NCBI GenBank assembly: GCA_903908245.1
Contig: CAIVRE010000002.1
Coordinates: 26,761 to 90,760, forward strand
Source of the DNA: Candidatus Omnitrophota bacterium
Lineage (GTDB): Bacteria; Omnitrophota; Gorgyraeia; Zapsychrales; Fredricksoniimonadaceae
Reading direction: 5' to 3'
Length of the DNA: 64,000 nt
In this document: positions 1-46,090 of the stretch, one piece after another
Layout of the letters: the number at the start of each line of letters is the position of its first letter
Numbering within the stretch: position 1 is the stretch's first letter
Notes under the pieces: generated by a model
What the model saw: only the letters and a program-made list of their open reading frames with translations
Told to the model about the DNA's origin: nothing
Database searches by the model: none
Translations under genes and position numbers: made by a program

Positions 1-6093
<6,093 letters not shown>

Positions 6094-9101: not shown

Positions 9102-9105
9102 AAAA

Positions 9106-9258: not shown

Positions 9259-9273
9259 GGGTCTCCGTACTTA

Positions 9274-9346
9274 AGCCCTCGACCAGGATTGAACTGGTGA
9301 CCTCGTCCTTACCAAGGACGTGCTCTACCAACTGAGCTACAAGGGC
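9274..9346 (-). tRNA. tRNA-Thr (anticodon GGT)
   Basis: The reverse complement is GCCCTTGTAGCTCAGTTGGTAGAGCACGTCCTTGGTAAGGACGAGGTCACCAGTTCAATCCTGGTCGAGGGCT, with a 7-bp acceptor stem. Confidence 0.85.
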
Positions 9347-13591: not shown

Positions 13592-14966
<1,375 letters not shown>

Positions 14967-14969
14967 ATA

Positions 14970-15407: not shown

Positions 15408-15514
15408 TTGAACCCCCAAAGTAATAAGTAAGTCTATCGGAACACTAGAGAATATAGCACACAAAAAAAGAATGTCAAGAAAAAAGATACGAACCAAATA
15501 TGTCTTTGAAGATA

Positions 15515-16120
15515 TCAGGAGGGCTTTAACGCCAGGATCGCCTGCATGATGCGCTGTGCGGCGATAGTTGAGTCAACATCGGAAGAAAAAACAAGAGGCT
15601 GGCCAAAGATAACTTTAACAGACGTACGTTTGGGGAATTTAGCACTTTTAGGTAAAACCTTATCCGTGCCTTCAATATATATAGGCACAACAGGGACGCC
15701 GGACTTGCCTGCCAGGAAACCAACCCCCGCCTGAGGCTTCTCGCCGCCACGGGTCCCCTGCGGAAAAACGAGCACCGGCCAACCGTCTTTAAGGCTCTGC
15801 AATACTTCCGTCAACGCACCGCGATCTGCCGAACCACGCTTAAGCGCAATACCCCCGCCAAAACGGATCAACGCGCCCAGGACAGGATGTTTAAATAACG
15901 AATCCTTGGCCAAAAACCTTATCCGGCGCGGTGAAACAACCGGCAAAAGGACAGGATCGATATTGCTTTCATGATTAGAGGCGTAAATACATCCGCCCGT
16001 CTTCGGGATATTCTCCCGGCCATAAGTGCGGCAGGGATAAAAACAAAAGCTGACAACAGCCGCGAGGCCCGTTGTCAGCCAATAGTAGACATACTTCAGA
16101 ACGTTCAACATATTGGGCAC
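15515..16120 (-). CDS. plsC: 1-acyl-sn-glycerol-3-phosphate acyltransferase family protein
   Basis: Carries the NHESNIDP acyltransferase motif and a FPQGTR-like block. Confidence 0.75.
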   Translation of the reverse strand: MPNMLNVLKYVYYWLTTGLAAVVSFCFYPCRTYGRENIPKTGGCIYASNHESNIDPVLLPVVSPRRIRFLAKDSLFKHPVLGALIRFGGGIALKRGSADRGALTEVLQSLKDGWPVLVFPQGTRGGEKPQAGVGFLAGKSGVPVVPIYIEGTDKVLPKSAKFPKRTSVKVIFGQPLVFSSDVDSTIAAQRIMQAILALKPS

Positions 16121-16147
16121 ATGAGTTATCGTCTATTTACCGGGCGA

Positions 16148-17575
16148 TCATCCCAGGGTCTTGGCCAGCTCCAACGCGAAATCAAGGAGCTGCTTCGTGC
16201 GTTTAGAGCTCTTGGACTCCGCGTACGCGCGCAAGATCGGCTCGGTCCCGGAAGCGCGGACCATGATCCAGCTGTCATCCGCCAGCTCGAGCTTCACACC
16301 ATCGAAATCTTTAACAGCAATGACCTGCTTACCCAAAACCGTTTCGATCTTCTTGACCGGCTCAAGGGTCTTCACCATTCCCTTGAGCTGAATGCTGGTC
16401 TTCTCATAATAATATTTACCGTACTTTTTCTCCATCTCGTCGAGGATCTTGACCATGCTCTTCTTCTCGTACACCATCATCTCGATCAGGAGAAGGCCAG
16501 CCAGAATGCCGTCGCGCTCCGGGATATAATCAGGCATGCCCATCCCGCCCGCTTCCTCGCCGCCCGCGATGATCTCTTCGGTCAGCATCAGGTCGGAAAT
16601 ATATTTAAACCCTACCGGCGTCTCGTAAAGCTTGATGCCATTGGCCTTGCACAGATTATCGATCATCGTGGTACCGCAAATGGTCTTGACGATACCGCCC
16701 TTAACGCCGCGGTTCTTCCAAAGGTGAAGCGCAAGCAAAGCCAGGATCTTCTGAGGAGAAACAAACTTTCCGTTAAGAACGACCGCGATACGATCAGCAT
16801 CTCCGTCGAGCACAAGACCAAGGTCATACTTCCCTTTTTTCGTGACCGCAATAAGCTCGCCCAAATATTGTGCCAGAGGCTCCGGACGGGTCCCGCCAAA
16901 ACCGGGATTCACATCCGCATGCATCAGCTCCAGGCGGATAGCTGTGCCTTTAAGTGCGGCCTCAAGCAACCTGCCGCCGGAACCATACATAACATCCTGG
17001 ATCACACGGAACTTTGCCGTCTTGATCTTTCTTAAACTCACATATCCGCGAATAAATTTCAGATAATCCCTCTTAAAATCCAGGACCTTGATCTTGCCGT
17101 CAGCCACAGCCTTCTTGAATTCAACCGACAAGACCGGCTCCACGCCAATATAGCCTTCCACCGCATCCGTAATATTCTTGCCCGCGCCGCCGCCCTCGGC
17201 CGTCTTGATCTTAAAACCGTTATATTCCGGAGGATTATGGCTTGCTGTAATGACCACACCTGCCACGCACTTATGGTCACGCCCCGCCAGGCTAAGCGCC
17301 GGTGTCGGAAGTGACGCGCTCGACAAAAAGACCTCAATGCCGTTCGCGGCCAGGACTGACGCCACAGTCTCGGAGAAATCCTTCGAAAGGAACCTGTTAT
17401 CATAGCCCACCGCCACACGCAAAGGCTCAGTGCCGATCCTTTTTGCATCCCTCTTGACCCACACCGCCAACGCCTGTGAAAGAGCGGCCACATTTTCAAA
17501 AGTAAATGTATCGGCAATGATCGCGCGCCAGCCGTCAGTACCGAATTTAATGACTTCTTTTGGATCCTTTGGCAT
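16148..17575 (-). CDS. phosphomannomutase/phosphoglucomutase family protein
   Basis: Active-site motif GVVITASHNPPEYNGFK, 475 aa. Confidence 0.85.
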   Translation of the reverse strand: MPKDPKEVIKFGTDGWRAIIADTFTFENVAALSQALAVWVKRDAKRIGTEPLRVAVGYDNRFLSKDFSETVASVLAANGIEVFLSSASLPTPALSLAGRDHKCVAGVVITASHNPPEYNGFKIKTAEGGGAGKNITDAVEGYIGVEPVLSVEFKKAVADGKIKVLDFKRDYLKFIRGYVSLRKIKTAKFRVIQDVMYGSGGRLLEAALKGTAIRLELMHADVNPGFGGTRPEPLAQYLGELIAVTKKGKYDLGLVLDGDADRIAVVLNGKFVSPQKILALLALHLWKNRGVKGGIVKTICGTTMIDNLCKANGIKLYETPVGFKYISDLMLTEEIIAGGEEAGGMGMPDYIPERDGILAGLLLIEMMVYEKKSMVKILDEMEKKYGKYYYEKTSIQLKGMVKTLEPVKKIETVLGKQVIAVKDFDGVKLELADDSWIMVRASGTEPILRAYAESKSSKRTKQLLDFALELAKTLG

Positions 17576-17584
17576 AACAACCTT

Positions 17585-17668
17585 TCTTAAGAATTTCTCT
17601 ACTGAGAAATTGTTAACTCACATCCGCCACGACAGCCCATCAGGCTGACGAGCGGATGTGAGCTTCCA
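17585..17668 (-). repeat. conserved upstream element, copy E1
   Basis: The core CGTCAGCCTGATGGGCTGTCGTGGC lies inside a CTCACATCCGC/GCGGATGTGAG stem. A conserved GAGTTAA...AGAGAAATT flank continues to the ribosome-binding site. Confidence 0.7.
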
Positions 17669-17671
17669 CAA

Positions 17672-18247
17672 TTAAATTTTATACAAATGATTGCGTTTAA
17701 TATAACTTAAAACAGCATCCGGGACAAGGAACTGGATCGATTTCTCCAGCAAAATACGCTTGCGGATCTCGGTCGACGACATTTCGATCCCATTCATGGT
17801 GACCGCATGATACTTGAGCTTCTCCTCCCCGCGCGGATAACCGGGGCGGTTCACGGACACAAAAGAACACATTGTTTTCAGGATATTAACATCTTTCCAG
17901 GTATCCAGCTGTTTGATCGCATCCCCTCCGACAATAAAGAACATCTTGTCCTGGAGGCCGTAAAGGCCGCGGAAATGCCGGACCGTATCCACCGAATAAG
18001 ACTTGCCGCCTTTTTTGATCTCGAAATCCGACACTTCAAACTCGGCGATACCCTTGATCGCCATACGGACCATCTTCATGCGATCTGCCGCCGTGAACAA
18101 CGTTGGGGCTTTCTTGTGCGGCGGTACACACGAAGGGATAAAAACAACCTTGTCCAGGCCCATCTGCTCCATCGCGGCACGCGCCATTAGCAAATGCCCG
18201 AGGTGAACAGGATCAAACGTTCCGCCAAAAAGCCCGATCTTTTTCAT
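17672..18247 (-). CDS. nadD: nicotinate-nucleotide adenylyltransferase
   Basis: MKKIGLFGGTFDPVHLGHL. Confidence 0.9.
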   Translation of the reverse strand: MKKIGLFGGTFDPVHLGHLLMARAAMEQMGLDKVVFIPSCVPPHKKAPTLFTAADRMKMVRMAIKGIAEFEVSDFEIKKGGKSYSVDTVRHFRGLYGLQDKMFFIVGGDAIKQLDTWKDVNILKTMCSFVSVNRPGYPRGEEKLKYHAVTMNGIEMSSTEIRKRILLEKSIQFLVPDAVLSYIKRNHLYKI

Positions 18248-19500
18248 TGGCGGACCTGCCCGTTCCCGTAAACCTGATATTTATACGACGTTAAACCCTC
18301 CAGGCCCATAGGCCCGCGGACATGGATCTTATCCGTCGATATCCCCACCTCGGCCCCCAGGCCGAACTCATAACCATCTGTGAACCTGGTCGAGGCATTC
18401 ACATACACGCACGCGGAATCAACGCCCTTAAGGAACACATCCGCTTCTTTCTTGTCTTTAGTGACGATCGCGTCGGAATGACGGGACCCGCATTTATTAA
18501 TATGATCGACCGCTTGCGCCACCCCGTTAACGACCTTGACCGTAAGGATCAGATCAAGATATTCCTCATACCAATCCTTCGCCGAGGCTTTTTTCATATC
18601 ACCCACAATGCGGCATGCCGCCTCATCCCCGCGCAACTCAACGCCCGCAGCCCGCAGCCTTGCCGCCATTGGCAAAAGGAACCGCTTGGCCACTTTTTCA
18701 TCCACCAGCATCTTTTCCATGGCATTGCACACACCCGGACGCTGAACCTTGGCATTAAAACAAATTTCTTCGGCCATCTTAAGATCAGCTTTCGAACTCA
18801 CATAAACATGGCACACGCCCTTATAATGCTTGACCACAGGGATGCGCGAATTCTCGGCGACAAAACGAATAAGCCCCTCGCCGCCGCGCGGGACAATAAG
18901 ATCAATATGCTGATCGAGCTTAAGCAATTCCGTCACCGCCGCGCGGTCCACAGACCCGATGAACCCAAGCGCCTCAGCCGGAATTTTAGTCGCAACAAGA
19001 GCGCCCTTAAGCGCCTTGTAAATGGCCATATTTGAATGGATCGCTTCTTTACCGCCCTTAAGAATGACCGCGTTGCCCGATTTAAGGCATAACGCCGCAC
19101 AATCCGCCGTAACATTCGGACGGGATTCATAAATGATCCCGACCACCCCGATCGGCACACGCACTTTATCAATACGCAGGCCATTAGGCCTCCTGCGGCT
19201 GTCCATCACCTCGCCGACAGGGTCTCTGAGCTTCACAATATCAAGAATGCCATCCGCCATCGCCTTGACACGCTGCTCATTGAGCGTCAGCCGGTCGATC
19301 AAGGCCGCCGATAACCCGGCCTTAACACCCGCCGCGACATCCAAAGCGTTGGCTCTCATGATCGCTGCACAATTCTTTACCAAAGCAGCCGCCATGGCCT
19401 TAAGCGCCGCATCCTTTTCCTTGGTTGGGACCAACGCAAGCTTCAATGCCGACTGCTTGGCGATCTGCGCCTGTTTTAAAATGATCTTTTGAATATCCAT
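18244..19500 (-). CDS. proA: gamma-glutamyl phosphate reductase
   Basis: 418 aa of the aldehyde-dehydrogenase-like ProA family, directly downstream of proB. Confidence 0.9.
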   Translation of the reverse strand: MDIQKIILKQAQIAKQSALKLALVPTKEKDAALKAMAAALVKNCAAIMRANALDVAAGVKAGLSAALIDRLTLNEQRVKAMADGILDIVKLRDPVGEVMDSRRRPNGLRIDKVRVPIGVVGIIYESRPNVTADCAALCLKSGNAVILKGGKEAIHSNMAIYKALKGALVATKIPAEALGFIGSVDRAAVTELLKLDQHIDLIVPRGGEGLIRFVAENSRIPVVKHYKGVCHVYVSSKADLKMAEEICFNAKVQRPGVCNAMEKMLVDEKVAKRFLLPMAARLRAAGVELRGDEAACRIVGDMKKASAKDWYEEYLDLILTVKVVNGVAQAVDHINKCGSRHSDAIVTKDKKEADVFLKGVDSACVYVNASTRFTDGYEFGLGAEVGISTDKIHVRGPMGLEGLTSYKYQVYGNGQVRQ

Positions 19501-19508
19501 GCACTCAC

Positions 19509-20600
19509 CTATGCCGTAACAACAAGATTATCAATATGAATGAACGGTTTTTTCGCTTTCCTGTCGCTCACTTCATCCAAATGTTCTTTGGCGTAATCCG
19601 CGATCCCGCGCGCCAGCTCAACGCCCGCCTGGTCCTGCACAACAACAGCATCACCCGGAGTGAATTTCCCTCCCCAGGCAACAATGCCCGGCAAAAGAAG
19701 GCTGGCATCGCCTTTCAGGATCGCCTTGGCCGCGCCATCGTCTACCGTCACAAACCCCTTGGGCTTGGCGAAAAAACAGATCCAGTGTTTATGCGCGATC
19801 AAGCGCTCTTCCTTCTCGAAGAAATACGTTCCGAGCGACTCTTTATCCACCACGATCCGCCGGATCACGTCCATCGTCTGGCCATTGGCAATAATACAGG
19901 GCACGGCCGCACGGGAAGCGATCTCAACAGCATTTACCTTGGTGACCATGCCGCCTTTGGAGAAATTATGGTCACGCGCGCCACCCGCCACACTCCTGAT
20001 CTCGTCCGTGATCTCCCGGACCTCGCTGAACTTTTCCGTCAGCTTCCCGCCTTCCTTCTTATATAACCCGTCCACATCAGAAAGCATGATCAGAAGGTCG
20101 GCATGGACCATGGCCGCGACCATGGCCGAAAGCTTGTCGTTATCGCCGAACTTGATCTCCTCGGTTGATATCGAATCATTCTCATTGATAATGGGGACGA
20201 CCCCGCGCGTCAAAAGTTTCTGCAATGTATTGCATGCATTGGAATGCCTGAGCTTGCTGTCAAAATCATCCCAGGTCAGCAGGATCTGCGCGCAAACACG
20301 CCCGCGCTTCTTGAACAGATCGCCGTAAAGGCGCATCAACAACGCCTGCCCTACCGCGGCAGCCGCTTGCAGGGAAGGGGTATCCGACGGACGTACTCGC
20401 TCGCCCATTTCACCCAAGCCCAGCGCAATAGCCCCGGAACTGACAAAAACAACCTCAAAGCCCCTGTCCTGCAGGTCACAGATCTGCGCCACCAGCGACT
20501 TTAAGGATCTCTCGTGCGGCTTCATCATATGCGTCGCCAGAAGGCTGGAGCCAACCTTGATGACCACGCGCTTTATCTTCCTGGGGAATTTCCGTTCCAT
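19509..20600 (-). CDS. proB: glutamate 5-kinase
   Basis: Amino-acid kinase domain plus a C-terminal PUA domain. Confidence 0.9.
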   Translation of the reverse strand: MERKFPRKIKRVVIKVGSSLLATHMMKPHERSLKSLVAQICDLQDRGFEVVFVSSGAIALGLGEMGERVRPSDTPSLQAAAAVGQALLMRLYGDLFKKRGRVCAQILLTWDDFDSKLRHSNACNTLQKLLTRGVVPIINENDSISTEEIKFGDNDKLSAMVAAMVHADLLIMLSDVDGLYKKEGGKLTEKFSEVREITDEIRSVAGGARDHNFSKGGMVTKVNAVEIASRAAVPCIIANGQTMDVIRRIVVDKESLGTYFFEKEERLIAHKHWICFFAKPKGFVTVDDGAAKAILKGDASLLLPGIVAWGGKFTPGDAVVVQDQAGVELARGIADYAKEHLDEVSDRKAKKPFIHIDNLVVTA

Positions 20601-20606
20601 ATCGTC

Positions 20607-21590
20607 CTATTGGGTAAAACGCGCCGACTGCTTAAGGATCACAATGATCTCGTCAACCAGATCTTTCAATCCCTTCTTGTCGAGCGCGGATATAGGAAAT
20701 ACTTTAACACCTTTGAATTGCTTTTTAAAGCGCTTCAAATGCTTCTTTGCTTCGGGGAGGTCCATCTTGTTCGCCACCACAATGCGATGCTTGTGCGCCA
20801 GCTCATCACTATACTGCTCAAGCTCGGAAATGATCTGTTCGTAATCGACCAGCGGGTCCCGATCCTCACTGCCCGACATATCGACCACCTGCACCAGGAT
20901 CTTGGTGCGCTCGGCATGCTTAAGGAACTTGATCCCCAACCCCTTGCCCAAATGCGCGCCCTCGATCAATCCGGGAAGGTCCGCCGCCACAAAACTCGCG
21001 TCATCCGTTTCTACAATGCCCAGGATAGGCTGTTTGGTCGTGAACGGATAATTCGCCACCTTGGAACGGACTTTGGAGATCGCCGAGATGAGCGTAGATT
21101 TCCCCGCATTGGGAAAACCCACCAGCCCCACATCCGCAATCACTTTCAGCTCCAGGCGCAGCGTTTTCTCATCGCCCCGCTCGGGAGGAACAGCTGTCTT
21201 GCGGTGCATATTGCCGATGCCGCCGCGGCCGCCGGGGATAACAACCACCAGCTCTCCGGGCGTGCTAAAATCACGGATAAGCAGCCCCGTCGCATCGTCC
21301 CACAGGACCGTACCGATAGGCACACGCAGGACACAATCCGCGCCACAACGGCCGGTCGCGCCTTTACTGGAACCGCAATTGCCCTTTTTCCCCTGATAAT
21401 GCTGTTTGAAACGGAAGTCCAGGAGGGTCTGAATGTGGGGATCACCAACAAAAATAATACTGCCGCCATCGCCGCCGTTACCGCCATCGGCACGGGGATA
21501 ACGCATCCACAGGTCACGATAATGGCTTTCGCAACCTTTGCCACCATCACCGGCCCTGACTACTATTCGAGCGGAATCAACAAATGCCAT
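20607..21590 (-). CDS. obg: GTPase Obg/CgtA
   Basis: An Obg fold (MAFVDSARIVVRAGDGGKGC) followed by a G domain (GFPNAGKSTLIS). The start was set at the internal Met of the longer ORF. Confidence 0.85.
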   Translation of the reverse strand: MAFVDSARIVVRAGDGGKGCESHYRDLWMRYPRADGGNGGDGGSIIFVGDPHIQTLLDFRFKQHYQGKKGNCGSSKGATGRCGADCVLRVPIGTVLWDDATGLLIRDFSTPGELVVVIPGGRGGIGNMHRKTAVPPERGDEKTLRLELKVIADVGLVGFPNAGKSTLISAISKVRSKVANYPFTTKQPILGIVETDDASFVAADLPGLIEGAHLGKGLGIKFLKHAERTKILVQVVDMSGSEDRDPLVDYEQIISELEQYSDELAHKHRIVVANKMDLPEAKKHLKRFKKQFKGVKVFPISALDKKGLKDLVDEIIVILKQSARFTQ

Positions 21591-21686
21591 AAGAAACGCC
21601 TTGAATTGAAATCCTACGGCCCCGGCTCGCTGTAAGCTCGCTAGGCGGCCTTTTGGACATTTTCGAAAGGATCCTTTCGAAAATAA

Positions 21687-21725
21687 AAGCGGGCAGGATT
21701 TTCCCATCTCCTGCCCGCTCTATAA
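21687..21725 (-). terminator. Rho-independent terminator after rplU
   Basis: Minus strand reads AGCGGGCAGGAGATGGGAAAATCCTGCCCGCT followed by TTTTATTTTCG. A second perfect palindrome, TTTCGAAAGGATCCTTTCGAAA, lies just beyond it. Confidence 0.7.
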
Positions 21726-21735
21726 CAAAGAAATC

Positions 21736-22047
21736 TTACGCGGTGATCTTCGCAACCTTAAGAGCGGTCAATCCCTGACGATGCCCGATGGTCCTGCGAA
21801 CATCCTTGCGCTTGCGGAAGAAGAACGAAATATCCTTCTCGTCGCGTAAATGACGAACGACCTCAAAAGAGACCTTCGCACCCGCCACATAGGGCGTACC
21901 GATCTTGACATCATCGCCATTCGCGACCAAAAGGACCTTGTCCACATCCATTGTCTGGCCGGGCTCGATATCAATACTGGGAGCATCAATAATATCACCT
22001 TCCGCAACCTTGAACTGGAAGGAACCTACGTCGATGACTGCGTACAT
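21736..22047 (-). CDS. rplU: 50S ribosomal protein L21
   Basis: A 103-aa L21 starting MYAVIDVGSFQFKV. Confidence 0.9.
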   Translation of the reverse strand: MYAVIDVGSFQFKVAEGDIIDAPSIDIEPGQTMDVDKVLLVANGDDVKIGTPYVAGAKVSFEVVRHLRDEKDISFFFRKRKDVRRTIGHRQGLTALKVAKITA

Positions 22048-22099
22048 ATGAACAACCTCCTGAAAAATTAAACAACCACTTTATGAAATTAAGTGCCTT

Positions 22100-22127
22100 A
22101 TTATATGTATTTTATTCCTTTAGTCAA
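22100..22127 (-). promoter_or_regulatory. sigma70-like promoter for rplU
   Basis: Minus strand reads TTGACT, a 16-nt spacer, then TATAAT. The -35 hexamer overlaps the last codons of rng. Confidence 0.5.
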
Positions 22128-23502
22128 TTTTTACTTTACCACGGCCCTGGCAATACGGACAAGGCGCGAACTTAATGGACTCCAGCGTCTTCCCCGCACG
22201 CTCACGAGTCATTTCAACAAGCCCGAGGCTCGAGATCTTGTTGACCTCGGTCTTCGACATGTCTTTTGCGAGCTCGGCCTTAAGGACATCGAGCACCTTG
22301 CGTTTGTGCTCCTCGCGCATCATATCAATAAAATCAATAACAATAATACCGCCCAGGTCGCGCAAACGCAATTGGCGGGCTATTTCAGGCGCGGCCTCCA
22401 TATTCACATTGAACGCCGCCTCCTCGGGAGAAGCCTGCGTCTTGTAACGGCCGCTGTTGACATCCACCACCGTCACGCCTTCCGTAGGCTCGATGACCAC
22501 GTAAGCGCCCGTTTTTAAGTAAACCTTCGTATCGTAGATCTCCTCAAGCGCCTGGGATATCTTATGTGCCTCAAAAATATTGGTTTCCCCGCGATGCAAA
22601 TGGATCTTCTTGAGCGCCTTCTGGCCCACCAGCGTCTCCACATACTTGAGCAGCTTCTCGTGTTCTTCCTTCGAATCGATATGAATGGACGCCACATCTT
22701 CACGCAAATGATCACGCACGACTTTCCAGATAATATCCCCCTCCTTGTACACCATGAACGGGGATTTCTTCTCGCGGGCAAGCTTTAACACCTGCTGCCA
22801 TTTGTCGTAAACGAACTTGGCATCATTAAGAAGCTCGGCTTTATCCTGATTCATCGATACCGTGCGGATAATGAACCCGCCTTCCTTGATATCGCACTCC
22901 TTGATGATCTCACGCAGGCGATGACGCTCCTCGGGAGACTCGATCTTCTGGGAAACCCCCACATGATTATCATAGGGCATGTAAACCACAAAACGGCCTG
23001 GAATAGAAACATGCGTGGTAAGCCGCGGGCCCTTGGTCCCGAAAGGGTCCTTCTCAACCTGCACCAGGACCTCCTGTCCAACCTTGAGCGGCGTCCCTGC
23101 TTTTCCGCCGCCACGGTGGCCGCCGCGGCCATGAGGCTTTTCCCCAGGTGCATCCTTCTTGACCAGCTCCGCCGACTTGGCTGCCTCCGCCGACTTCGGC
23201 TTACGGTTGAGCAGGCGGTCGATCAAACTGGGCTGAGCATCATCCTTCTTCTTGTTGACGAAATCCTCTAAGCTGGAATGGTCGGCATCGGTGAGATAAA
23301 GGAAACCGTTCTTCTCCTGGCCGACATTAACAAAAGCTCCATTAATGGACGGCAGAATGGACTCGACCTTGCCCTTGTAAATATTCCCCAGGAAAGATTC
23401 ATAGCGGTCAAGCTCGATATAAAAATCATCAAGTTTCTTGTTATCAATGACCGCCACCCGCCGCTCCCCGTCGGCAACGTGGATCAAAATATCTTTTGGC
23501 AC
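22120..23502 (-). CDS. rng: ribonuclease E/G family protein (RNase G-like)
   Basis: An S1 domain is followed by an RNase E/G catalytic core. The start codon is GTG, with AAGGAG 5 nt upstream. Confidence 0.8.
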   Translation of the reverse strand: MPKDILIHVADGERRVAVIDNKKLDDFYIELDRYESFLGNIYKGKVESILPSINGAFVNVGQEKNGFLYLTDADHSSLEDFVNKKKDDAQPSLIDRLLNRKPKSAEAAKSAELVKKDAPGEKPHGRGGHRGGGKAGTPLKVGQEVLVQVEKDPFGTKGPRLTTHVSIPGRFVVYMPYDNHVGVSQKIESPEERHRLREIIKECDIKEGGFIIRTVSMNQDKAELLNDAKFVYDKWQQVLKLAREKKSPFMVYKEGDIIWKVVRDHLREDVASIHIDSKEEHEKLLKYVETLVGQKALKKIHLHRGETNIFEAHKISQALEEIYDTKVYLKTGAYVVIEPTEGVTVVDVNSGRYKTQASPEEAAFNVNMEAAPEIARQLRLRDLGGIIVIDFIDMMREEHKRKVLDVLKAELAKDMSKTEVNKISSLGLVEMTRERAGKTLESIKFAPCPYCQGRGKVKID

Positions 23503-23505
23503 AAA

Positions 23506-23589
23506 AACTCCTTAAAAAATTTTCTACTAAAAAATTTTAACTCCCGAATGCCACGACAGCCCTACAGGCTGACGGGCAGATGGGAGTTA
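23506..23589 (-). repeat. conserved upstream element, copy E2
   Basis: The core CGTCAGCCTGTAGGGCTGTCGTGGCATTCGGGAGTTAAAATTTTTTAGTAGAAAAT lies between the pilQ stop and the rng ribosome-binding site. A hairpin is followed by a T-run. Confidence 0.7.
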
Positions 23590-23623
23590 CCTCAAACCTA
23601 AAATCTTTCCTGCCCAACAAAAA

Positions 23624-25192
23624 CTATTTCCCGGCTTTGTCCGTCTTGGGCAACTCCGCCGGCTTGGCCGCCTGCAATGACTTGGCCTCCTCTACTGCCG
23701 CAGAAAGCTCGGGCGACATGGCCGGTACTGGCACCTTGGCCGACTTGGCTGAAACAGACTCCATTGTCGGTGTAATAATATGCGGGGTCAGGAATATCAA
23801 CATCTCCGACTTGTTAACGGTTTCCGCTTTATGACGGAAAGGGATCCCCAATATGGGGATCCATCCCAGGAACGGAACATCATTATGGCTTATCGTTTTG
23901 TCCTCGCTGATCAACCCGGCGATCACGAGCGTCTCGCCATCCCTGATCATAACCATGGTCTTGACCGCCTCATTGGTCAACACCGGCATGGTCGTTCCCA
24001 GGACCGTGACTGTCTTGTCCGAAATGCTTGAGACCTGCGGCTCAAGCTCCAGCGTGATCAAGGACGCGTTATTGATATGCGGGGTCACGTTAAAAATGAC
24101 GCCCAGATCAATATAACTCCAGCCTGAAACCACCATTGTATTGGTTTGCGAACTGAACGAATACTGGGGCATGGGATATTGATCGCCCACCTGGATCCTG
24201 GCCGGCTGATTGTCCATCGTCACCAGCTGCGGGTTGGATATGCTCTTGGTATTACCACGCGATTGAAGCGCATCAATGACCAGGCTCAGGTCGGTAATGC
24301 TCAACGTGCCATAGGTGATCACCGGTGCGGTTGCAGCCGGGCCCATTGCAGGCAAATACATGTCCTTGTTAGGGCTCCAAGGAAAAGAATGCGGCCGCGT
24401 GCCAAAAGTCGCTTTCCCCGACACCTGGGTCAGCTTGGACCAGTCGATCCCCATGGTTTCCGACTTGGTCAACCCCGTCTTGATGATCCGTGCTTCGATC
24501 AGGACCTGGGGAGTAACGGTATCGAGTGTCTTAACAACCTCCGTGATCAACTCAAGGTTGCTTTCCACATCGCTGACAATGACCGCATTGGTACGCTTGT
24601 CAAAATTAATGCTCCCCCGGGCTGTTTTCATTTTATCAAGAGAAGCCACCACATCTGCGGCCTTGCTGAAATTCAGCACGAAAGTTTTTGTCGCAATAGG
24701 CTCCTGGTCGGCCAAAGCCTTGGCATCCTCACGGCGTTTCTTGAGGTTCTCCACCGTAGTCACCATGATGATCGTACCCTTCTGCTCGTAACTGTACCCA
24801 TAGGTCGAAAGGATCACATCGAGCGCCTTCTGCCACGGCACATCCTTGAGCTGAATATTCACCATCCCGACCACTTCGGGACCGGCAATAATGTTAATGC
24901 CGCTTTTATACGACAAGACCTTCAGGACATTCTTGATATCCGCCTCACGGAAATCCAGCGATACGTTCCCGGTCTTGGACATCTTGAACTCCATGACCGC
25001 CTCCGATACAGCCACCGGAGCTGTCGCCGCAACCGGGACGGCCGCAACAACAGGGTCAACCGAGCTCACAGATGTCACCGTTTGCGCCGCTTGCCCGGCC
25101 GGGACGGCTTGCGTATCAGCCTTATCCTGGGCATGACCCGCGGGAATACTTAACACCATAATCAAAAACGCGAGGCAAAGGATCCTCACCAT
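23624..25192 (-). CDS. pilQ: type IV pilus secretin PilQ
   Basis: Signal peptide, N-terminal AMIN/N0-like regions and a C-terminal secretin domain. Confidence 0.85.
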   Translation of the reverse strand: MVRILCLAFLIMVLSIPAGHAQDKADTQAVPAGQAAQTVTSVSSVDPVVAAVPVAATAPVAVSEAVMEFKMSKTGNVSLDFREADIKNVLKVLSYKSGINIIAGPEVVGMVNIQLKDVPWQKALDVILSTYGYSYEQKGTIIMVTTVENLKKRREDAKALADQEPIATKTFVLNFSKAADVVASLDKMKTARGSINFDKRTNAVIVSDVESNLELITEVVKTLDTVTPQVLIEARIIKTGLTKSETMGIDWSKLTQVSGKATFGTRPHSFPWSPNKDMYLPAMGPAATAPVITYGTLSITDLSLVIDALQSRGNTKSISNPQLVTMDNQPARIQVGDQYPMPQYSFSSQTNTMVVSGWSYIDLGVIFNVTPHINNASLITLELEPQVSSISDKTVTVLGTTMPVLTNEAVKTMVMIRDGETLVIAGLISEDKTISHNDVPFLGWIPILGIPFRHKAETVNKSEMLIFLTPHIITPTMESVSAKSAKVPVPAMSPELSAAVEEAKSLQAAKPAELPKTDKAGK

Positions 25193-25570
25193 TTACTCCT
25201 CCTTCTTTATACGAAGTTCCGAAACCTGTCCGTCTTTGACCAAAGTCACCTTGTCCGGCTCGATCTTTGCGACCGTGTACATTCCGAACAGCTTCCCCTG
25301 CTCAACCACCGTACCATTAATGATCGCAATGCCGCCCTCACCATCACTCACGATCCCTTCCAGCACCATTTCCGCAACCGCGAAACTGGTCTCGTAGGTC
25401 ACGATCGCACCGCCCGCCGTTACCAGCGGCCAGAACGGATCCCGCTGGGAGTGTTCATCATACACAAACTCCGCCTCTGAAGCCGGCGCCACCGGCTCAG
25501 TGGGATTAGCCGATGCCCGCGCCATCAGAAAAAACAGCACAACAATAAAGGCCAGGACAGAACGGATCAA
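25193..25570 (-). CDS. pilP: type IV pilus assembly protein PilP
   Basis: A 125-aa signal-peptide protein with an RDPF motif, positioned between pilO and pilQ. Confidence 0.7.
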   Translation of the reverse strand: MIRSVLAFIVVLFFLMARASANPTEPVAPASEAEFVYDEHSQRDPFWPLVTAGGAIVTYETSFAVAEMVLEGIVSDGEGGIAIINGTVVEQGKLFGMYTVAKIEPDKVTLVKDGQVSELRIKKEE

Positions 25571-25571
25571 A

Positions 25572-26153
25572 CTATTTCTCCAAAATGAGGATCTTCATGT
25601 TCATTTTAACTTCCTGACGCTGAATATCCTTTGTGTCCGTCGCGATCTCGAACTCATCCAATTGCCAGAACAAACGGTCGCGTTCCAAACGATTCAAGAA
25701 CCGGCCGAACTGATGGAACCCGGAACTGATCCGGACAGAAATATTCATCGAGTAATACTTTCCATCTTCACTCACAACCAAAGGCGCAACACTGATAGGC
25801 TGCGGCGTTAATTGGTCGATCTTGACCCCATACTCATTGGCAATACTGGAAATGCTCCTTAACACCACCGGGACCTCGTCTTTACGATGGACCATCGCTT
25901 CAAAATTCTTGCGGGCCATCCGGGCAAGCTCGAGCTGGGTCTTGAACTGTACCAGCCGCTGTTTATTGGTCGAGAGGTCCGTAATATCTTTATCCAGCTG
26001 AACGATCTTGGCGTCCAGCGACCTCACCAGGCCCAGCTGAACACGCATCACCAGCACAAAATCCACCAAAGCGAACAGGGCGATCATCCCGGCAAGGATC
26101 ATATAAAGATACTTGACCTCAAGCTCCTTGAGCTTCTCCAGCGCAGGGTTCAT
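25572..26153 (-). CDS. pilO: type IV pilus assembly protein PilO
   Basis: N-terminal transmembrane helix then coiled coil, in the pilMNOPQ order. Confidence 0.75.
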   Translation of the reverse strand: MNPALEKLKELEVKYLYMILAGMIALFALVDFVLVMRVQLGLVRSLDAKIVQLDKDITDLSTNKQRLVQFKTQLELARMARKNFEAMVHRKDEVPVVLRSISSIANEYGVKIDQLTPQPISVAPLVVSEDGKYYSMNISVRISSGFHQFGRFLNRLERDRLFWQLDEFEIATDTKDIQRQEVKMNMKILILEK

Positions 26154-26746
26154 GGGGCCTTCCTTTTCGCTTTCAGGGCAAAGTCCGCGATCGAAAGCGC
26201 AGTCCCCTCCCGACGCTCAATGGAATCAACATCAATGCCGGTAAAAGCCCCTTTCAATCCTGGCTGTTCTTTGAGCATAGCCACAAAATTATTCACAATG
26301 ATCATCTCATTCTTGACTTTAGAGACCGCACTGCCGCGAATAGTGAACTGGCCTCGGTCAAAATGGATCTCACGGAGCCATACGCCCTTCGGAACGCTGT
26401 CAGACACTTCGTTCATCAATCTGGCCCAGACAACACCTTGCGCGGAGGTTATGGCCCTCAAGGCATTCATTTTTGTCTGCAATGTTTTTGTTTCATTCGT
26501 AACATCATCCAGGACCTTCTTCTGCGCGCCCATCGAGGCCCAACGGACCTGAAGCATCGTATGCTGGGCGGCCTTGACCAACGCCAGCCCCGCCAACGCA
26601 AGATGAAGAAGGACCAGCACGCCGGCCCCGGCCACCAGGATCCCAAGGATCGCCTCACGCGTCAACGGGCCGAACCCGTCCTGCCAGATATTCCCGCGGT
26701 CTTTCCGCGCTTCCTGAGGGATGAAATTAACCTTGATCATATTCAT
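26150..26746 (-). CDS. pilN: type IV pilus assembly protein PilN
   Basis: Starts MNMIKVNFIPQE, with a single transmembrane helix. It overlaps both neighbours. Confidence 0.75.
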   Translation of the reverse strand: MNMIKVNFIPQEARKDRGNIWQDGFGPLTREAILGILVAGAGVLVLLHLALAGLALVKAAQHTMLQVRWASMGAQKKVLDDVTNETKTLQTKMNALRAITSAQGVVWARLMNEVSDSVPKGVWLREIHFDRGQFTIRGSAVSKVKNEMIIVNNFVAMLKEQPGLKGAFTGIDVDSIERREGTALSIADFALKAKRKAP

Positions 26747-27815
26747 TGAGCGCCAACCCCAGGGCCGTGATAAGCCTGGAACTGTTCGCCTTTAACCCTT
26801 CCCTGGATACATTGGGTGCCACGATCATCCTTTCAAACGGGTCCCAAATACTGACAGGAACATCGACCCCGTCCTTGAACGCCTTCTCGACACCGGGGAT
26901 CTGCGCTCCGTCCCCGGCCAAAAAAACACGCGTTATTGCCAGGTTCTTTTCCGTCACAAAATATTCGAACGACAAGCGTATTTCCGCGATGAGATTCATC
27001 ATCACCGCATCCACGGATTTCTGGGCCGCTTCACTTAACGCCATACCGGGACGTAAAAGAACATGCGCTTCAGCGGGTGGAACACCAAGAAGATTGGACA
27101 CACGTTTGTAAAGTTCCTGCGTGCCGATAAAAATATCCCGGTTGAACCGTGGCAATCCTGCGAAAACGATCATCAAATTCGTACCGGTCTCGCCGATATC
27201 GATCACCGCACAAGCCTTGAACTCCCTGGCCCCCGACCCCGAAGCAAACCCTTCCGGCGGAAATACGGCAAAAGCATTGGCCAGCGCCACCGAAGCAAGC
27301 GTAACCGTTAACGGCTCCATCCCGGCCTCTTTAAGCAATTTCATGCGCCCGTCAACCAGGTCTTTTTTCACCGCTGACACAAGGACAGACATTTTGCGGT
27401 TATTATCCATCGTGTCAAGGATATGACAATCCGTATAAACAGTATCCTTGGGGAACGGGAAATATTTGTCGGATTCGATCGCAAATGCCCGGCGAAGGTC
27501 TGCGGTCGACATCCTGGGCATATCCACATACCGCACCAAGGTCCCCTTGCCGCTCACCGAAGCGACCACCGCGCGTGGCCCGGCCTGTCCAAAAGAAGAC
27601 GCCAGTTTCCCCAACACGGCCAGGGCCGAACGGTCATCATTATCGGACAACAGCTCAAGGCTCCAGCGCGACAATTCGAAAGCCCCGTTCTTCAAGAAAA
27701 GTTCAACAACTTTACACGAAGAAGGGCAAATATCAAGTCCGACAGAACTGCTCTTGGGATTCAACGGGAACAAACGCTTGATGAATTTGAAGTATGTATC
27801 AATAAAAGAGGCCAT
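26727..27815 (-). CDS. pilM: type IV pilus assembly protein PilM (actin-like ATPase)
   Basis: 362 aa with an actin/HSP70-like fold, first gene of pilMNOPQ. Confidence 0.8.
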   Translation of the reverse strand: MASFIDTYFKFIKRLFPLNPKSSSVGLDICPSSCKVVELFLKNGAFELSRWSLELLSDNDDRSALAVLGKLASSFGQAGPRAVVASVSGKGTLVRYVDMPRMSTADLRRAFAIESDKYFPFPKDTVYTDCHILDTMDNNRKMSVLVSAVKKDLVDGRMKLLKEAGMEPLTVTLASVALANAFAVFPPEGFASGSGAREFKACAVIDIGETGTNLMIVFAGLPRFNRDIFIGTQELYKRVSNLLGVPPAEAHVLLRPGMALSEAAQKSVDAVMMNLIAEIRLSFEYFVTEKNLAITRVFLAGDGAQIPGVEKAFKDGVDVPVSIWDPFERMIVAPNVSREGLKANSSRLITALGLALNEYDQG

Positions 27816-27939
27816 AATGTAAGTTTAATATAACAAAAGACATAGCATGTTTAAATATAAATATTTGATTTGTATGTTCTGCCATTATTCAGGAAAACCC
27901 CGGGCCCCTGAAACCCACCGGGACTTTTTGTCAATAGCC

Positions 27940-27976
27940 CTTCACAAAAAGAAGAAGGGGCCATGAAGGCCCCTTC
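27940..27976 (-). terminator. Rho-independent terminator after pilA
   Basis: Minus strand reads GAAGAAGGGGCC-ttcat-GGCCCCTTCTTC followed by TTTTTG. Confidence 0.8.
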
Positions 27977-28004
27977 TTCAAGAAACACACTTCGACCACA
28001 TTCA

Positions 28005-28394
28005 TTAGGGTGTCAAAATACCGCCCGTGCTCATCGTGAAAGTAGTCGTCCCTGATGTGCTGACCGTCACAGGCGTAGCAATGAACGAATACGACCCCGT
28101 AGCGAATGTGCAACTATACACGAACCCTGCATTAGTGGTGCCGCAATAGTTCTTGTTCGTATACGGTGGCGTTGCACCCGTCAAAGAAGCCTCGGATCCA
28201 GGATAAGAACCATTATTCGCCGTTCCGAAGGTCTCGGAAGCGGTCGAAAGTGAACGCAACGTACCCTTGGCCAAAGCATCATTCGCGGAAATCTTTGCCC
28301 TTAACAGGTTCGGGATCGCAATAGCGGCCAAAAGCGCGATAATAGCCACCACGATCATGATCTCAACTAGAGTAAAACCTTTTTTATTAGACAT
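28005..28394 (-). CDS. pilA: type IVa major pilin / prepilin
   Basis: KKGFTLVEIMIVVAIIALLAAIAIPN is a class III signal with Gly-Phe cleavage and Glu5. Confidence 0.9.
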   Translation of the reverse strand: MSNKKGFTLVEIMIVVAIIALLAAIAIPNLLRAKISANDALAKGTLRSLSTASETFGTANNGSYPGSEASLTGATPPYTNKNYCGTTNAGFVYSCTFATGSYSFIATPVTVSTSGTTTFTMSTGGILTP

Positions 28395-28397
28395 ACA

Positions 28398-28483
28398 TCC
28401 TCCTTGAAATTTCTTCTAAAAAACCGTTTAACTCCCGAATGCAACGACAACCATTCAAGCTGCCGGGCTAAAAGGAGTTCCCT
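28398..28483 (-). repeat. conserved upstream element, copy E3 (in the pilA 5' leader)
   Basis: CGGCAGCTTGAATGGTTGTCGTTGCATTCGGGAGTTAAACGGTTTTTTAGAAGAAATTTCAAGGAGG shares the core and flank of E1 and E2. It lies between the putative pilA promoter and the pilA start. Confidence 0.7.
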
Positions 28484-28521
28484 GAATTGTGAGTGATGTC
28501 ATACAGGAGAGCAATAAAAGA

Positions 28522-28537
28522 GGTAATTATAATACCA
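28522..28537 (-). promoter_or_regulatory. putative extended -10 promoter for pilA
   Basis: Minus strand reads TGGTATTATAAT, fitting a TGn plus -10 hexamer, about 130 nt upstream of pilA. Confidence 0.4.
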
Positions 28538-28733
28538 GTTATTCACCCGTTCTCGCCTTGACAACACCCGGTCAAACCAAAATGTCCTTGCCCTCCTTTC
28601 TTTAATTTCCTTTATCTTTCTTGCGGATCCCCCGCAGGCTTATGTATTTTATGTATAGCCTGCAACGCCGCCTCAAGAACACTATCCCTACTAAAGCATA
28701 CCATACCCCGAAGATATTGTCCAAATATCAATA

Positions 28734-29786
28734 CTAACGGACCTGGCCCATCTCCTTTTCAAGAAGCGCTTTCTTTTTATCCATGCTGACCATGGAACGC
28801 TGAAGATTCCTCAACCCCATGGACAAGTCCCTGTTACGCGTAAAAAGTTCCTTGAACCGGGCCTCATCCTTCTTCAATTTGGCATCCTGAGGCAACGCTG
28901 TCTTGGCGGTCCGTATCGCTTTCTCCGCTTCTGCGGCCTCTTTCTCCAGCCCCTTGGCCTTGGCCTCCAACGCCTGAATGTCCTGCTCTAGCTGAGCCAC
29001 CGCCTGTAAGGAGAATTTCGCCGAAACGTCATCCGACTCTTTGACAGCTACAGCCAGCTTCTGGCGAAGCCCGTCGATCTCCTGCGTACGGCGGATCATG
29101 TCACTCTTAAGCGCCGCCTGTTCCTGGGTCAACGCTTCCCCCTGGCCAGGCCCGGCATTAACGAACACAACAAGATCTTTCCACTCTGCACGCAAACGGT
29201 CAAGCTCGATAGTATACGCGTCAAGGGCTTGTTGTGCCGACTGCTGTTCGGCGCGCAAAGCCTCCAGTTCCGCCGTATGATCCTCTCCCGGCACAAGCCC
29301 GGTACGGATATCCGACAACTCTCGCGACAATGCCTCCGACTGGGCAGTCAAAGCCGATGACTCCACATCCTTGATCTGAAGCTGCTCTTCAAGGGTAGCC
29401 CTCTGACTATTGAGCCCTGCAAGGTCCGCCGCCCCCCCCTTGAACTGCTCTTCCAGCGAAGAATGCTCCTCTGCTTTTTTTTGATACGCTGGGTCCAGAA
29501 GCCGGAGCTGCGCGTTGATCTTGTCTCCCTGGGCCTGCTCAAGCTTCAATTCATCATTAAGGGCGCGGATCTTCACCCTGATCTGGTCATTGCCTGAAGC
29601 CAACTTCGCGTTCTCCCCGCTCAGCCGGGTGACACTGTCCTTCAATGTGTTCAATGTGTAATCCAGCTTATCCTGCGCGCTTGAAGCTGCCTCAATGGAT
29701 CCCGGCCTCGAAAGAAGGTCTGCGGGTTGCGCATAAGCCGAAAAAGCAAAAAGAACAAAGAATAAAATAACGGATCGTCCCATCAA
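28734..29786 (-). CDS. secreted coiled-coil protein
   Basis: Signal peptide (MMGRSVILFFVLFAFSAYA), then about 320 aa of heptad-rich sequence high in Q, E, A and L. It lies between pilC and pilA. Confidence 0.6.
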   Translation of the reverse strand: MMGRSVILFFVLFAFSAYAQPADLLSRPGSIEAASSAQDKLDYTLNTLKDSVTRLSGENAKLASGNDQIRVKIRALNDELKLEQAQGDKINAQLRLLDPAYQKKAEEHSSLEEQFKGGAADLAGLNSQRATLEEQLQIKDVESSALTAQSEALSRELSDIRTGLVPGEDHTAELEALRAEQQSAQQALDAYTIELDRLRAEWKDLVVFVNAGPGQGEALTQEQAALKSDMIRRTQEIDGLRQKLAVAVKESDDVSAKFSLQAVAQLEQDIQALEAKAKGLEKEAAEAEKAIRTAKTALPQDAKLKKDEARFKELFTRNRDLSMGLRNLQRSMVSMDKKKALLEKEMGQVR

Positions 29787-29821
29787 GGCCCCCTCAAAAA
29801 AAACATGGAAAGAATAAAACC

Positions 29822-43655: not shown

Positions 43656-43674
43656 ATAAGCCTCCATAATTAGG

Positions 43675-43736: not shown

Positions 43737-43747
43737 ATATTTCTATT

Positions 43748-46082: not shown

Positions 46083-46090
46083 AAATGATA

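Follow-up and report, generated by a model that had tools for sequence, protein, structure and literature searches.

A dispersed, probably mobile ~82-nt stem-loop element flush with Shine–Dalgarno sequences in an Omnitrophota clade

Three copies ahead of pgm, rng and pilA

The window, the whole 64-kb stretch of Candidatus Omnitrophota DNA analysed here, contains three copies, each ~82 nt long and on the minus strand, of an element that lies directly ahead of pgm, rng and pilA (hereafter E1, E2 and E3, Table 1), where chance would provide none. A degenerate core pattern, CGKCAGCYTGNNKGGYTGTCGTKGC, has three exact matches, at 17626–17650, 23550–23574 and 28441–28465, all on the minus strand, and matched in 0 of 100 dinucleotide shuffles. 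The covariance model R1, built from four copies of the element and run over the 64 kb, scores the three copies at 81–99 bits and its next best match at 16.7 bits. The flank common to the copies is made of AGTTAA, an A/U hairpin and then the Shine–Dalgarno (SD) sequence. A sequence-only reading of this DNA had proposed three homologous, structured copies reaching the ribosome-binding site, and that description stands; the invariant core that it reported does not, since E3 differs from E1 and E2 at 5–6 of the 25 core positions, mostly through G–U wobbles.

The three downstream genes are functionally unrelated, as had been noted, and share no pathway; Pfam confirms their identities, and the genes on the 5′ side of E1 and E2 encode, also according to Pfam, a NadD-like protein (nadD) and a secretin (pilQ). 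Both copies had been said to begin near the upstream stop codon, which holds for E1, directly after the nadD stop (17672–17674), and not for E2, ~25 nt after the pilQ stop. The start codons are a GTG at 23502 for rng and an ATG at 28394 for pilA. E3 lies, as proposed, within the pilA leader, downstream of a −10 element, TATTATAAT, that is conserved in relatives, and from the inferred transcription start it would occupy roughly +30 to +115 of the transcript. Placement just upstream of SD sequences is a general theme in this genome: another palindromic repeat family, unrelated to the element, is found there too, at 14904–14972 and 43667–43742.

Table 1 Element copies, their hairpins and neighbouring features in the window
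Feature	Position	Strand	Description
Copy E1	17589–17671	−	R1 98.7 bits; occupies the entire spacer from the nadD stop to the pgm SD
E1 hairpin 1	17615–17664	−	Near-perfect stem of ~22 bp (folding); conserved apical core 17626–17650
E1 hairpin 2	17593–17610	−	AUUUCUC-AGUA-GAGAAAU (folding); 3–4 nt ahead of the SD AAGAAAGG (17581–17588)
Copy E2	23514–23595	−	R1 99.3 bits; pilQ–rng spacer; abuts the rng SD AAGGAG (23508–23513)
E2 hairpin 1	23538–23589	−	Outer stem AACUCCC/GGGAGUU, internal loop, conserved apical core 23550–23574 (folding)
E2 hairpin 2	23517–23537	−	A/U stem including the U-run (folding)
Copy E3	28406–28486	−	R1 81.6 bits; within the pilA 5′ leader; abuts the pilA SD AAGGAGG (28399–28405)
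E3 hairpin 1	28430–28479	−	Apical core 28441–28465 is the variant CGGCAGCUUGAAUGGUUGUCGUUGC; 7 G–U pairs in the sense fold
E3 hairpin 2	28408–28425	−	Folding
pgm	16148–17575	−	Pfam PGM/PMM domains I–IV; 3′ of E1
rng	22120–23502	−	Pfam RNase E/G family; 3′ of E2
pilA	28005–28394	−	Pfam N-methyl pilin (N-terminal methylation motif); 3′ of E3; followed by a canonical terminator, 27951–27979
pilA −10 element TATTATAAT	28526–28534	−	Also kept in L045, L046 and L047
rplU promoter and leader	22048–22127	−	TTGACT-16-TATAAT at 22100–22127; empty counterpart of the filled Cal1bin1 site (L046, 11450–11535)

The sister genome Cal1bin1 holds two further copies, one upstream of metY (L004, 7868–7954) and one in the rplU 5′UTR (L046, 11450–11535), the latter between a strong TTGACT-16-TATAAT promoter and rplU. 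A decayed remnant occupies the same rplU site in L047 (7285–7350), which brings the total to five full copies and one remnant. The full copies come from ~100 kb of two carrier genomes, with four of the five in one syntenic 12-kb block that was sampled preferentially. The distribution is narrow: when 185,579 species genomes and JGI metagenomes were scanned by exact pattern, one extra match was true and the others arose by chance.

Anatomy and fold of the element

The element opens on its 5′ side with the purine motif RAGG, continues with a long, imperfect hairpin (hairpin 1) and AGUUAA, and closes with a small A/U hairpin (hairpin 2), so that three helices form two stem-loops. The apical 25 nt of hairpin 1 are conserved in sequence (GCC-CG-U-CAGCC / GGCUG-U-CG-U-GGC); in the basal stem only the pairing is conserved. 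What had been called a loop-like core is this apical stem, which carries a U–U mismatch and a bulged U, and the bases that vary are the two in the central loop. A U-run begins 4–7 nt past the hairpin 1 stem and makes up the 5′ arm of hairpin 2.

Compensatory changes and G–U pairs on the sense strand support the predicted fold. In the alignment of the copies, paired cells amount to 94.6% for the consensus fold versus 39–56% with the partners slid, and double changes occur at five pairs, including a C–G to G–C exchange in the apical stem of the L046 copy. Folding favours the sense over the antisense strand in four of the five copies (for E3, −20.9 versus −11.1 kcal/mol), and the whole-leader folds reach −47.5 kcal/mol for E1 (z = −6.2) and −42.3 kcal/mol for E2 (z = −4.1).

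All five copies are in sense orientation to the downstream gene and stop 0–3 nt short of the SD that belongs to it; they lie in intercistronic spacers (nadD–pgm, pilQ–rng and DUF3034–metY) or in 5′UTRs behind a promoter (pilA and rplU). This SD-flush, sense-oriented placement is the sole unusual feature of the element; since nearly all window genes share the minus strand, a preference for the direction of the gene cannot be told apart there from one for the direction of replication.

Filled and empty sites, and the readings they favour

Five syntenic genomes (72–88% protein identity over six genes) have all three window sites without the element, and the counterparts of the pilA, rng and pgm sites lack it in L045, L046, L047, L048, L052 and L053 wherever these are covered. 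At pgm, its place is taken by other hairpins in L046, L047 and L048 and left empty in L045, L052 and L053; at rng, an unrelated hairpin takes it in L047, and L045, L046, L048 and L053 have an empty site. The rng start is called further upstream in L045 and L046 than the GTG aligned with the window start. Aligned with L045 and L046, the pilA site shows a clean insertion of ~70–75 nt between CACAA and AGGAGG. Throughout, the alignments give clean gaps, with the SD and its spacer conserved between filled and empty sites; the rng SD and spacer, AAGGAGTTTTTGTG, are identical at E2 and at the empty L053 site, and the SD and start, which are unchanged where relatives have no element at pilA (L046) and at rng (L053), belong to the host gene. 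At metY, L055/L056 (90.5% nucleotide identity in metY) and L057/L058 share identical flanks (…TACGCTTTCTAA before and AGGAGCGTAATATG after), and the spacer from stop codon to SD is taken up by the element in L004 and by a different, covarying GC hairpin in these relatives. The window genome and Cal1bin1 are sisters in a neighbour-joining tree of six proteins (88% identity), yet they have no occupied site in common. E2 is 82–85% identical to the Cal1bin1 copies and only 77–79% identical to E1 and E3; copy-to-copy identities do not follow the genome tree.

The element is probably a lineage-specific, non-coding, self-folding repeat of ~82 nt that spreads by copy-and-paste within one genus-level Omnitrophota clade, and the evidence thus favours what the sequence-only reading had kept as a fallback, a small REP- or MITE-like repeat. 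We infer that, as this clade radiated, copies entered new sites by transposition in trans or by microhomology-mediated insertion at the SD. They would be tolerated because the self-folding element keeps the run-up to the SD A/U-rich and unpaired. In the mRNA they would play the part of a generic, REP-like boundary hairpin, as opposed to a gene-specific sensor, and either shield the upstream cistron at its 3′ end or serve as a double-strand processing site. Strict SD-flush placement in sense is not expected of a purely selfish, randomly inserting repeat and counts against this reading, as do the small number of full copies and the results on element ends and transposases given below.

Several traits of the MITE type are present, namely presence/absence polymorphism at orthologous sites, the lack of coding capacity and the multiple copies. 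No terminal inverted repeats occur at the element ends, TTGAGGTAAC (5′) and GAAAATTTTTT (3′), which are not complementary; the inverted repeat AACTCCC…GGGAGTT is internal, with ~25 nt more of the element on its 3′ side. An imperfect SD-like direct repeat brackets each copy (TTCAGGG / TTCAAGGAGG at E3, TTTGAGGT / TTTAAGGAGT at E2), but its invariant GG, at a fixed distance from the stem, may be the element's own part, and no unambiguous target-site duplication was found at the copies. Neither the 28 window ORFs scanned nor the called genes of the related loci include a transposase, RAYT or recombinase, with the exception of L055, which has a phage-type integrase that is unrelated and distant from every copy. 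The picture that had been set against a regulatory role, a MITE scattered at random with inverted termini and duplicated targets, is only half borne out: the copies are insertion-polymorphic, but their placement is non-random, and neither inverted termini nor clean target-site duplications could be shown.

The strongest rival, to which we give a limited chance, is a regulon-building cis element, in which a protein acting in trans on RNA or DNA would bind the conserved apical hairpin, and acquisition of the cassette would give pilA, rng and pgm (in Cal1bin1, rplU and metY) a shared post-transcriptional control. It accounts well for an apical stem, U–U mismatch and bulged U that are invariant or compensated in all five copies above a drifting basal stem, and for a position relative to the SD that is fixed in all five, and it has a precedent in the REP2 repeats (PMC3184786). 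The copies of the two species are 82–86% identical, although orthologous, presumably neutral spacers barely align, which also fits purifying selection on a sequence-specific function. Against it, nothing functional links the downstream genes, which form a wholly different set in the sister genome, the two central loop bases are free to vary, the element is swapped for an unrelated hairpin at metY, no candidate binding protein was identified, and filled and empty sites do not differ consistently in predicted SD accessibility. The conserved cis-regulatory leader suggested earlier finds no support, as relatives lack the element ahead of pilA, rng and pgm where these sites are covered and the genes share no pathway.

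We give a smaller chance to a mobile, non-autonomous cassette whose choice of target would be of an undescribed kind: it would insert in sense at the 5′ edge of an SD, leave an SD-like copy on its 5′ side and use the apical hairpin as a handle for a transposase or an RNA-binding regulator, rewiring the 5′UTRs of core genes, those for pilin, RNase G, PGM, L21 and MetY, into lineage-specific regulons. That the element belonged to the leaders ancestrally, with precise losses in relatives instead of gains in the window lineage, is very improbable. The rplU site, full in L046 and decayed in L047 from a different sub-clade, speaks for it and implies that some copies are old and that decay occurs, but at least six independent precise deletions would be needed at the three sites across L045–L048 and the outgroups L052 and L053, in which the nadD–pgm spacer is only ~20 nt; Cal1bin1 lacks all three window copies, yet holds two others, and the copy identities are at odds with the species tree.

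A conditional stop of transcription in the leader by hairpin 1 and the U-run, as attenuator, terminator or riboswitch, is hardly credible: hairpin 1 is stable and GC-rich, a U6 run follows in E2 and E3, and E3 and the L046 copy sit in 5′UTRs, but the U-run is set off from the stem, is paired in hairpin 2 and is interrupted in E1 and L004, no alternative anti-terminator pairing is conserved, the genes are unrelated, orthologous leaders of relatives lack the element, and the L046 copy of Cal1bin1 lies between the strong promoter and its gene, the essential ribosomal-protein gene rplU. An intrinsic terminator has its U-tract within 0–2 nt of a GC-rich stem, and a terminator consensus scan of 15000–30000 called 15 terminator-like sites, recovering the canonical pilA terminator and no element copy, contrary to the proposals that E3 acts as an attenuator and E1 and E2 as terminators. 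Rfam 15 gave no match in the 64 kb at the gathering score and, at E ≤ 5–10, only miRNA/snoRNA noise of 14–20 bits against cut-offs of 45–150. A sigma-54 promoter, with GG and GC exactly 12 nt apart (TGGCAC-N5-TTGC), was rejected as well, in agreement with the sequence-only reading: in GGGCTGTCGTGGC the GC is 1–2 bases too close, TGGC-N7-AGTT has no −12 GC, and E3 carries TTGC for TGGC.

Omnitrophota are uncultured, with almost no experimentally characterised non-coding elements. In this clade, short spacers between stop codon and SD hold hairpin cassettes, of at least two multicopy families, that change between close relatives, and such turnover bears on operon annotation, gene-start calling and the reading of 'conserved upstream motifs' in metagenome-assembled genomes. 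A motif repeated before unrelated genes of one genome is possibly a young dispersed repeat and not necessarily a regulon signal. If the SD-flush placement does reflect targeting, it would represent a way of choosing insertion sites that is new for small bacterial repeats.

Comparison with known repeat families

Bacterial MITEs such as Correia/NEMIS, ERIC and RUP are likewise small and non-coding, form a long RNA stem-loop and vary in presence at orthologous sites, and they can sit in 5′UTRs, where the element is also found, and change transcripts. Unlike in MITEs, the inverted repeat is internal, with the A/U hairpin outside it on the 3′ side, the only direct repeat is the imperfect SD-like one and there is no known parent insertion sequence. 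PATEs derived from IS200/IS605 have imperfect hairpins with extrahelical or mismatched bases, one at each end of the family's members, lack terminal inverted repeats and target-site duplications, and insert in a strand- and orientation-specific manner beside a short target motif. As a tentative lead, the element is similar in its hairpins, in lacking terminal inverted repeats and clean duplications and in its oriented placement, but has one large conserved hairpin, and neither hallmark of PATEs, a Y1 transposase or a conserved cleavage tetranucleotide, was demonstrated for it in the loci read.

With SMAG and the RAYT-mobilised REP/BIME sequences of proteobacteria, the element shares a GC-rich, extragenic palindrome that is imperfect, with bulged and mismatched bases, and is placed in intercistronic spacers; these are known as mRNA-stabilising or boundary hairpins and not as terminators, and are insertion-polymorphic between relatives, as here. 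REP/BIME sequences differ in carrying a GTAG tetranucleotide 5′ at the hairpin foot, absent 5′ of hairpin 1 on both strands here (GTAG occurs only in the hairpin 2 loop of E1, E2 and L046), in measuring 20–40 nt, as opposed to ~82 nt with a second A/U hairpin, and in lying after stop codons or between convergent genes instead of flush with a downstream SD. REP systems also have tens to hundreds of copies, whereas copy number is low so far and neither the window nor the other loci read gave a RAYT gene.

Neisseria REP2/CREN repeats are defined by the lack of terminal inverted repeats, two internal stem-loops and a location immediately upstream of ORFs (PMC3184786, Delihas 2011 review). REP2 is longer, with its own promoter, ribosome-binding site and ATG, and has no sequence similarity to the element, in whose copies a scan found no promoter-like sites and whose adjoining SD and start are the host gene's. 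Like REP2/CREN and the IR sequences of Borrelia plasmids (PMC3184786), the element is dispersed, has two predicted internal RNA stem-loops between ends without inverted repeats, and lies right upstream of unrelated ORFs, pilus genes included, adjoining the ribosome-binding site; the REP2/CREN repeats precede contact-induced genes, for which common control has been proposed (PMC3184786).

A repeated hairpin element and its copies

The ~82-nt element occurs three times in the window, before pgm (E1), rng (E2) and pilA (E3), gene names that the sequence-only reading had assigned and that Pfam confirmed. Minus-strand reading and alignment show one layout in all three copies. In order, it comprises a short purine motif, which reads TTGTGGAA, TTTGAGGT or TTCAGGGA; a long imperfect stem-loop with a 25-nt conserved apical core (hairpin 1); AGTTAA; a small A/U stem-loop (hairpin 2); and the Shine–Dalgarno (SD) sequence of the downstream gene (pgm, rng or pilA) with its start codon. 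This shared architecture, together with three matches of the degenerate core in the window against none in 100 shuffles, bears out the three-copy module described in the sequence-only reading.

In RNA folding, E1 (z = −6.2) and E2 (z = −4.1) form strong hairpins, and E3 forms a weaker one with many wobble pairs. The core, previously taken to be loop-like, is instead an apical stem containing a U–U mismatch and a bulged U, and only its two central loop bases vary. In an alignment of five copies, including two from the sister genome Cal1bin1, 94.6% of the cells are paired, against 39–56% when the partners are slid, and two-sided changes at five pairs are distributed across all three helices. An internal loop becomes a continuous 12–13-bp helix in both E1 and the Cal1bin1 metY copy, through differing substitutions. 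A U-run lies 4–7 nt past hairpin 1, where it makes up the 5′ arm of hairpin 2. The sense strand outfolds the antisense strand in four of the five copies, with the largest contrast in E3 (−20.9 versus −11.1 kcal/mol, seven G–U pairs), which points to a transcript, or sense single-stranded DNA, as the probable folded species.

A search of the kind that the sequence-only reading had proposed was run on the window and related loci, with a covariance model for which four copies were used. With filters off the model recovers the three window copies only, finds none in the 10 kb past the window's end, and detects a fifth full copy (79.7 bits) between rng and rplU in Cal1bin1. This copy had been missed by the exact-pattern scan because of a compensatory C–G to G–C change within its apical stem. 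That scan of 185,579 species genomes gave 22 matches, 21 of them chance occurrences in high-GC or coding DNA; the sole match with element flanks precedes an O-acetylhomoserine sulfhydrylase gene on PEAR01000001.1 (Omnitrophota bacterium Cal1bin1). Metagenome contigs yielded 22 matches, all chance, and viral contigs none. As the database pattern scans require exact matches, the copy numbers are lower bounds. Searches for more copies in L047–L049, L052–L060 and the 10-kb extension L050 returned only a remnant in L047. Homologues of RNase G assign the window to Candidatus Omnitrophota. A protein identical to a window protein is present on ENA ERZ18626762 BUCK21-1 scaffold_41 (157 kb), and proteins identical to those of the window occur in several samples.

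Orthologous sites and probable insertion history

The syntenic block pilB…pilA-pilMNOPQ-rng-rplU-obg-proB-proA-nadD-pgm is found in six relative loci (L045, L046, L047, L048, L052 and L053), and the sites upstream of pilA, rng and pgm are without the element in all six, where covered. Filled and empty sites are separated by clean alignment gaps of ~60–75 nt with host sequence kept on either side. At pilA, for instance, the window shares AGGAGGATGTATG with L046, and at rng it shares AAGGAGTTTTTGTG with L053. A neighbour-joining tree of six proteins places the window and Cal1bin1 as sisters (88% identity), next to a clade made up of L045, L047 and L048; the outgroups are L052 and L053, in which the nadD–pgm spacer is just ~20 nt. 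The element occupies pilA, rng and pgm in the window and rplU and metY in Cal1bin1, so that no occupied site is common to both sisters.

At rplU, L047 retains a decayed remnant with a core ~80% identical to that of the L046 copy and the remainder eroded. The metY flanks are identical in L055/L056 (90.5% nucleotide identity in the gene) and L057/L058, where a different, itself covarying GC hairpin replaces the element; the L059 site is a plain 42-nt spacer. Identity among copies (E2–L046 85%, L004–L046 86%, E1–E2 77%, E1–E3 66%) is out of step with genome relationships. Given the empty orthologous sites and copy identities that do not follow the genomes, gains in single lineages would account for the distribution far more simply than many precise losses.

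Other hairpins are found in comparable positions. A second palindromic repeat, GGGGACAC[TTT/AAT]ACTTAATTCAT…ATGAATTAAGT[AAA/ATT]GTGTCCC, shows compensatory changes between its two copies, which lie just upstream of the SD and start of a metY-like and a SPOR-domain open reading frame (ORF). In the relatives, differing hairpins occupy the nadD–pgm and pilA-leader spacers that bear the element in the window, as well as rplU–obg; a tail, ATCGCAGAATT, is common to some of them (upstream of pgm in L046 and of obg in L048). Because the second repeat precedes SDs and singleton hairpins fill the same spacers in relatives, fast-turnover hairpin cassettes in stop-to-SD spacers are a general trait of the clade.

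Placement at Shine–Dalgarno sites and local signals

All five copies are in sense orientation to the downstream gene, with the 3′ end 0–3 nt before the SD; on the 5′ side, 0 to ~33 nt separate them from the stop codon that precedes or from the inferred start of transcription. Given the empty-site lengths (rng spacer ~48 nt, pilA leader 45 nt, rplU leader 22 nt), a rough estimate of the probability that three independent insertions would all fall within 3 nt of an SD is ~10^-3. An SD-like motif on the 5′ side of every copy could be a decayed target duplication or part of the element; neither a clean target-site duplication nor clean terminal-inverted-repeat boundaries emerged. At pilA and metY an upstream anti-SD-like stretch already pairs with the SD, and the element lies within that pairing, where a self-folding insert would be harmless. 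Sequestration of the SD by the element was rejected, as the probability that the SD region is unpaired (predicted at 0.11–0.59 for filled and 0.20–0.68 for empty sites) shows no consistent effect. With nearly all genes of the region on the minus strand and a uniform GC skew, orientation to the genes is inseparable from orientation to replication.

Features of the window and related loci (window positions unless a locus is named)
Feature	Position	Strand	Remarks
Element E1	17589–17671	−	before pgm
Element E2	23514–23595	−	before rng
Element E3	28406–28486	−	before pilA
Element, Cal1bin1	L004 7868–7954		metY
Element, Cal1bin1	L046 11450–11535		rplU
Block upstream of pilA −10	28541–28572; L045 ~3555–3590; L046 ~5120–5150; L047 ~668–700	− (window)	strongly conserved, four genomes
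Anti-SD-like CUCUCC(U/C), native pilA leader	28490–28515 with 28399–28405	−	conserved; same in L045, L046, L047
rplU promoter, near-consensus sigma-70, TTGACT-16-TATAAT (11/12)	22100–22127	−	overlaps rng stop codon; conserved in L045–L048
SD-containing perfect hairpin, AAACCTCCTTCATCC-CCGG-GATGAAGGAGGTTT	46089–46123	−	upstream of ORF 45222–46082
DUF3034 end/metY SD pairing	L004 7855–7975; L055 7940–8030; L057 2200–2290	− (L004)	complementarity
rng start calls in relatives	L045 10001–10022; L046 10001		7–10 codons upstream of conserved GTG
RNase P RNA (class A, 150 bits) and four tRNA genes	59163–59529, 60712–60887, 9028–9346	−	ordinary
Phage-type integrase and HTH gene	L055 1385–2913		near Rrf2/DUF3034/metY region; close relative of Cal1bin1
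Second palindromic repeat, unrelated to element	14904–14972 and 43667–43742	−	~70 nt, near-perfect; ORFs 13592–14884 (metY-like), 43179–43667 (SPOR)
Other hairpins of relatives	L046 15546–15606; L047 11717–11811; L048 10640–10704; L048 6520–6678; L047 740–853		mostly single-copy

In the native pilA leader the anti-SD-like stretch precedes the SD by ~30 nt; in the minimum-free-energy fold of the window it pairs with AGGAGG, and the inserted element is enclosed between the two. Further upstream, the conserved block ACCGGGTGnTGTCnAGGGCGAGnnCAGGTGA carries CGGGTG and CAGGTG ~22 nt apart, with no sigma-70 −35 hexamer at the right spacing, and could serve the pilin gene as an activator site or as an alternative promoter element. 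In the L004, L055 and L057 genomes, the last codons of DUF3034 (TTACGCTTTCTAA) are complementary to the metY SD region (AGGAGCGTAA), a pairing that surrounds whichever hairpin cassette is present and may be a translational-coupling structure. In the hairpin upstream of ORF 45222–46082, the SD itself (AAGGAGG) is paired with CCTCCTT, 9 nt ahead of the ATG, which suggests control of translation by SD sequestration. The called rng products are 467 and 470 amino acids long in relatives versus 460 in the window; judging from the SD and from the conserved N-terminus VPKDILIH, the relatives' starts are probably over-extended. The L055 integrase suggests an integrated element nearby and has no evident link to the repeat.

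Classification and likeness to known systems

The most apt description of the element is a new family of small intergenic repeats that are dispersed and structured, the direction in which the REP/MITE-like alternative of the sequence-only reading had pointed. It is possible, though rather unlikely, that the conserved apical hairpin serves a regulon. The attenuator or riboswitch-like terminator also put forward there is very improbable: a terminator consensus scan calls no copy, yet calls a canonical hairpin-plus-U-tract after pilA (27951–27979), and comparison with Rfam gave no match. In the whole window, the Rfam 15 matches are limited to RNase P RNA and four tRNAs, and no copy gives a credible one at gathering or permissive thresholds (E ≤ 5–10). 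A sigma-54 −24/−12 reading of the core, which the sequence-only reading had likewise been unable to fit, has spacing off by 1–2 nt and a GG not kept in E3. A leader peptide or small ORF is rejected by stop codons across the E2 element and by the lack of a start codon after the 5′ GAGG in E1 or E2.

No transposase, RAYT or reverse transcriptase was found near the copies among the 28 window ORFs (Pfam) or in the Pfam lists of related loci, and the ~100 kb of carrier genomes available likewise showed no transposase. The element differs from MITEs in showing no terminal inverted repeats, from REPs in being without a GTAG foot, and from REP2 in being without its own promoter, RBS or ATG; nor does it match the definition of a terminator or of any Rfam family. 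Its closest functional likeness is to REP-type boundary hairpins, and its closest positional likeness is to the Neisseria REP2/CREN and Borrelia IR upstream repeats (PMC3184786).
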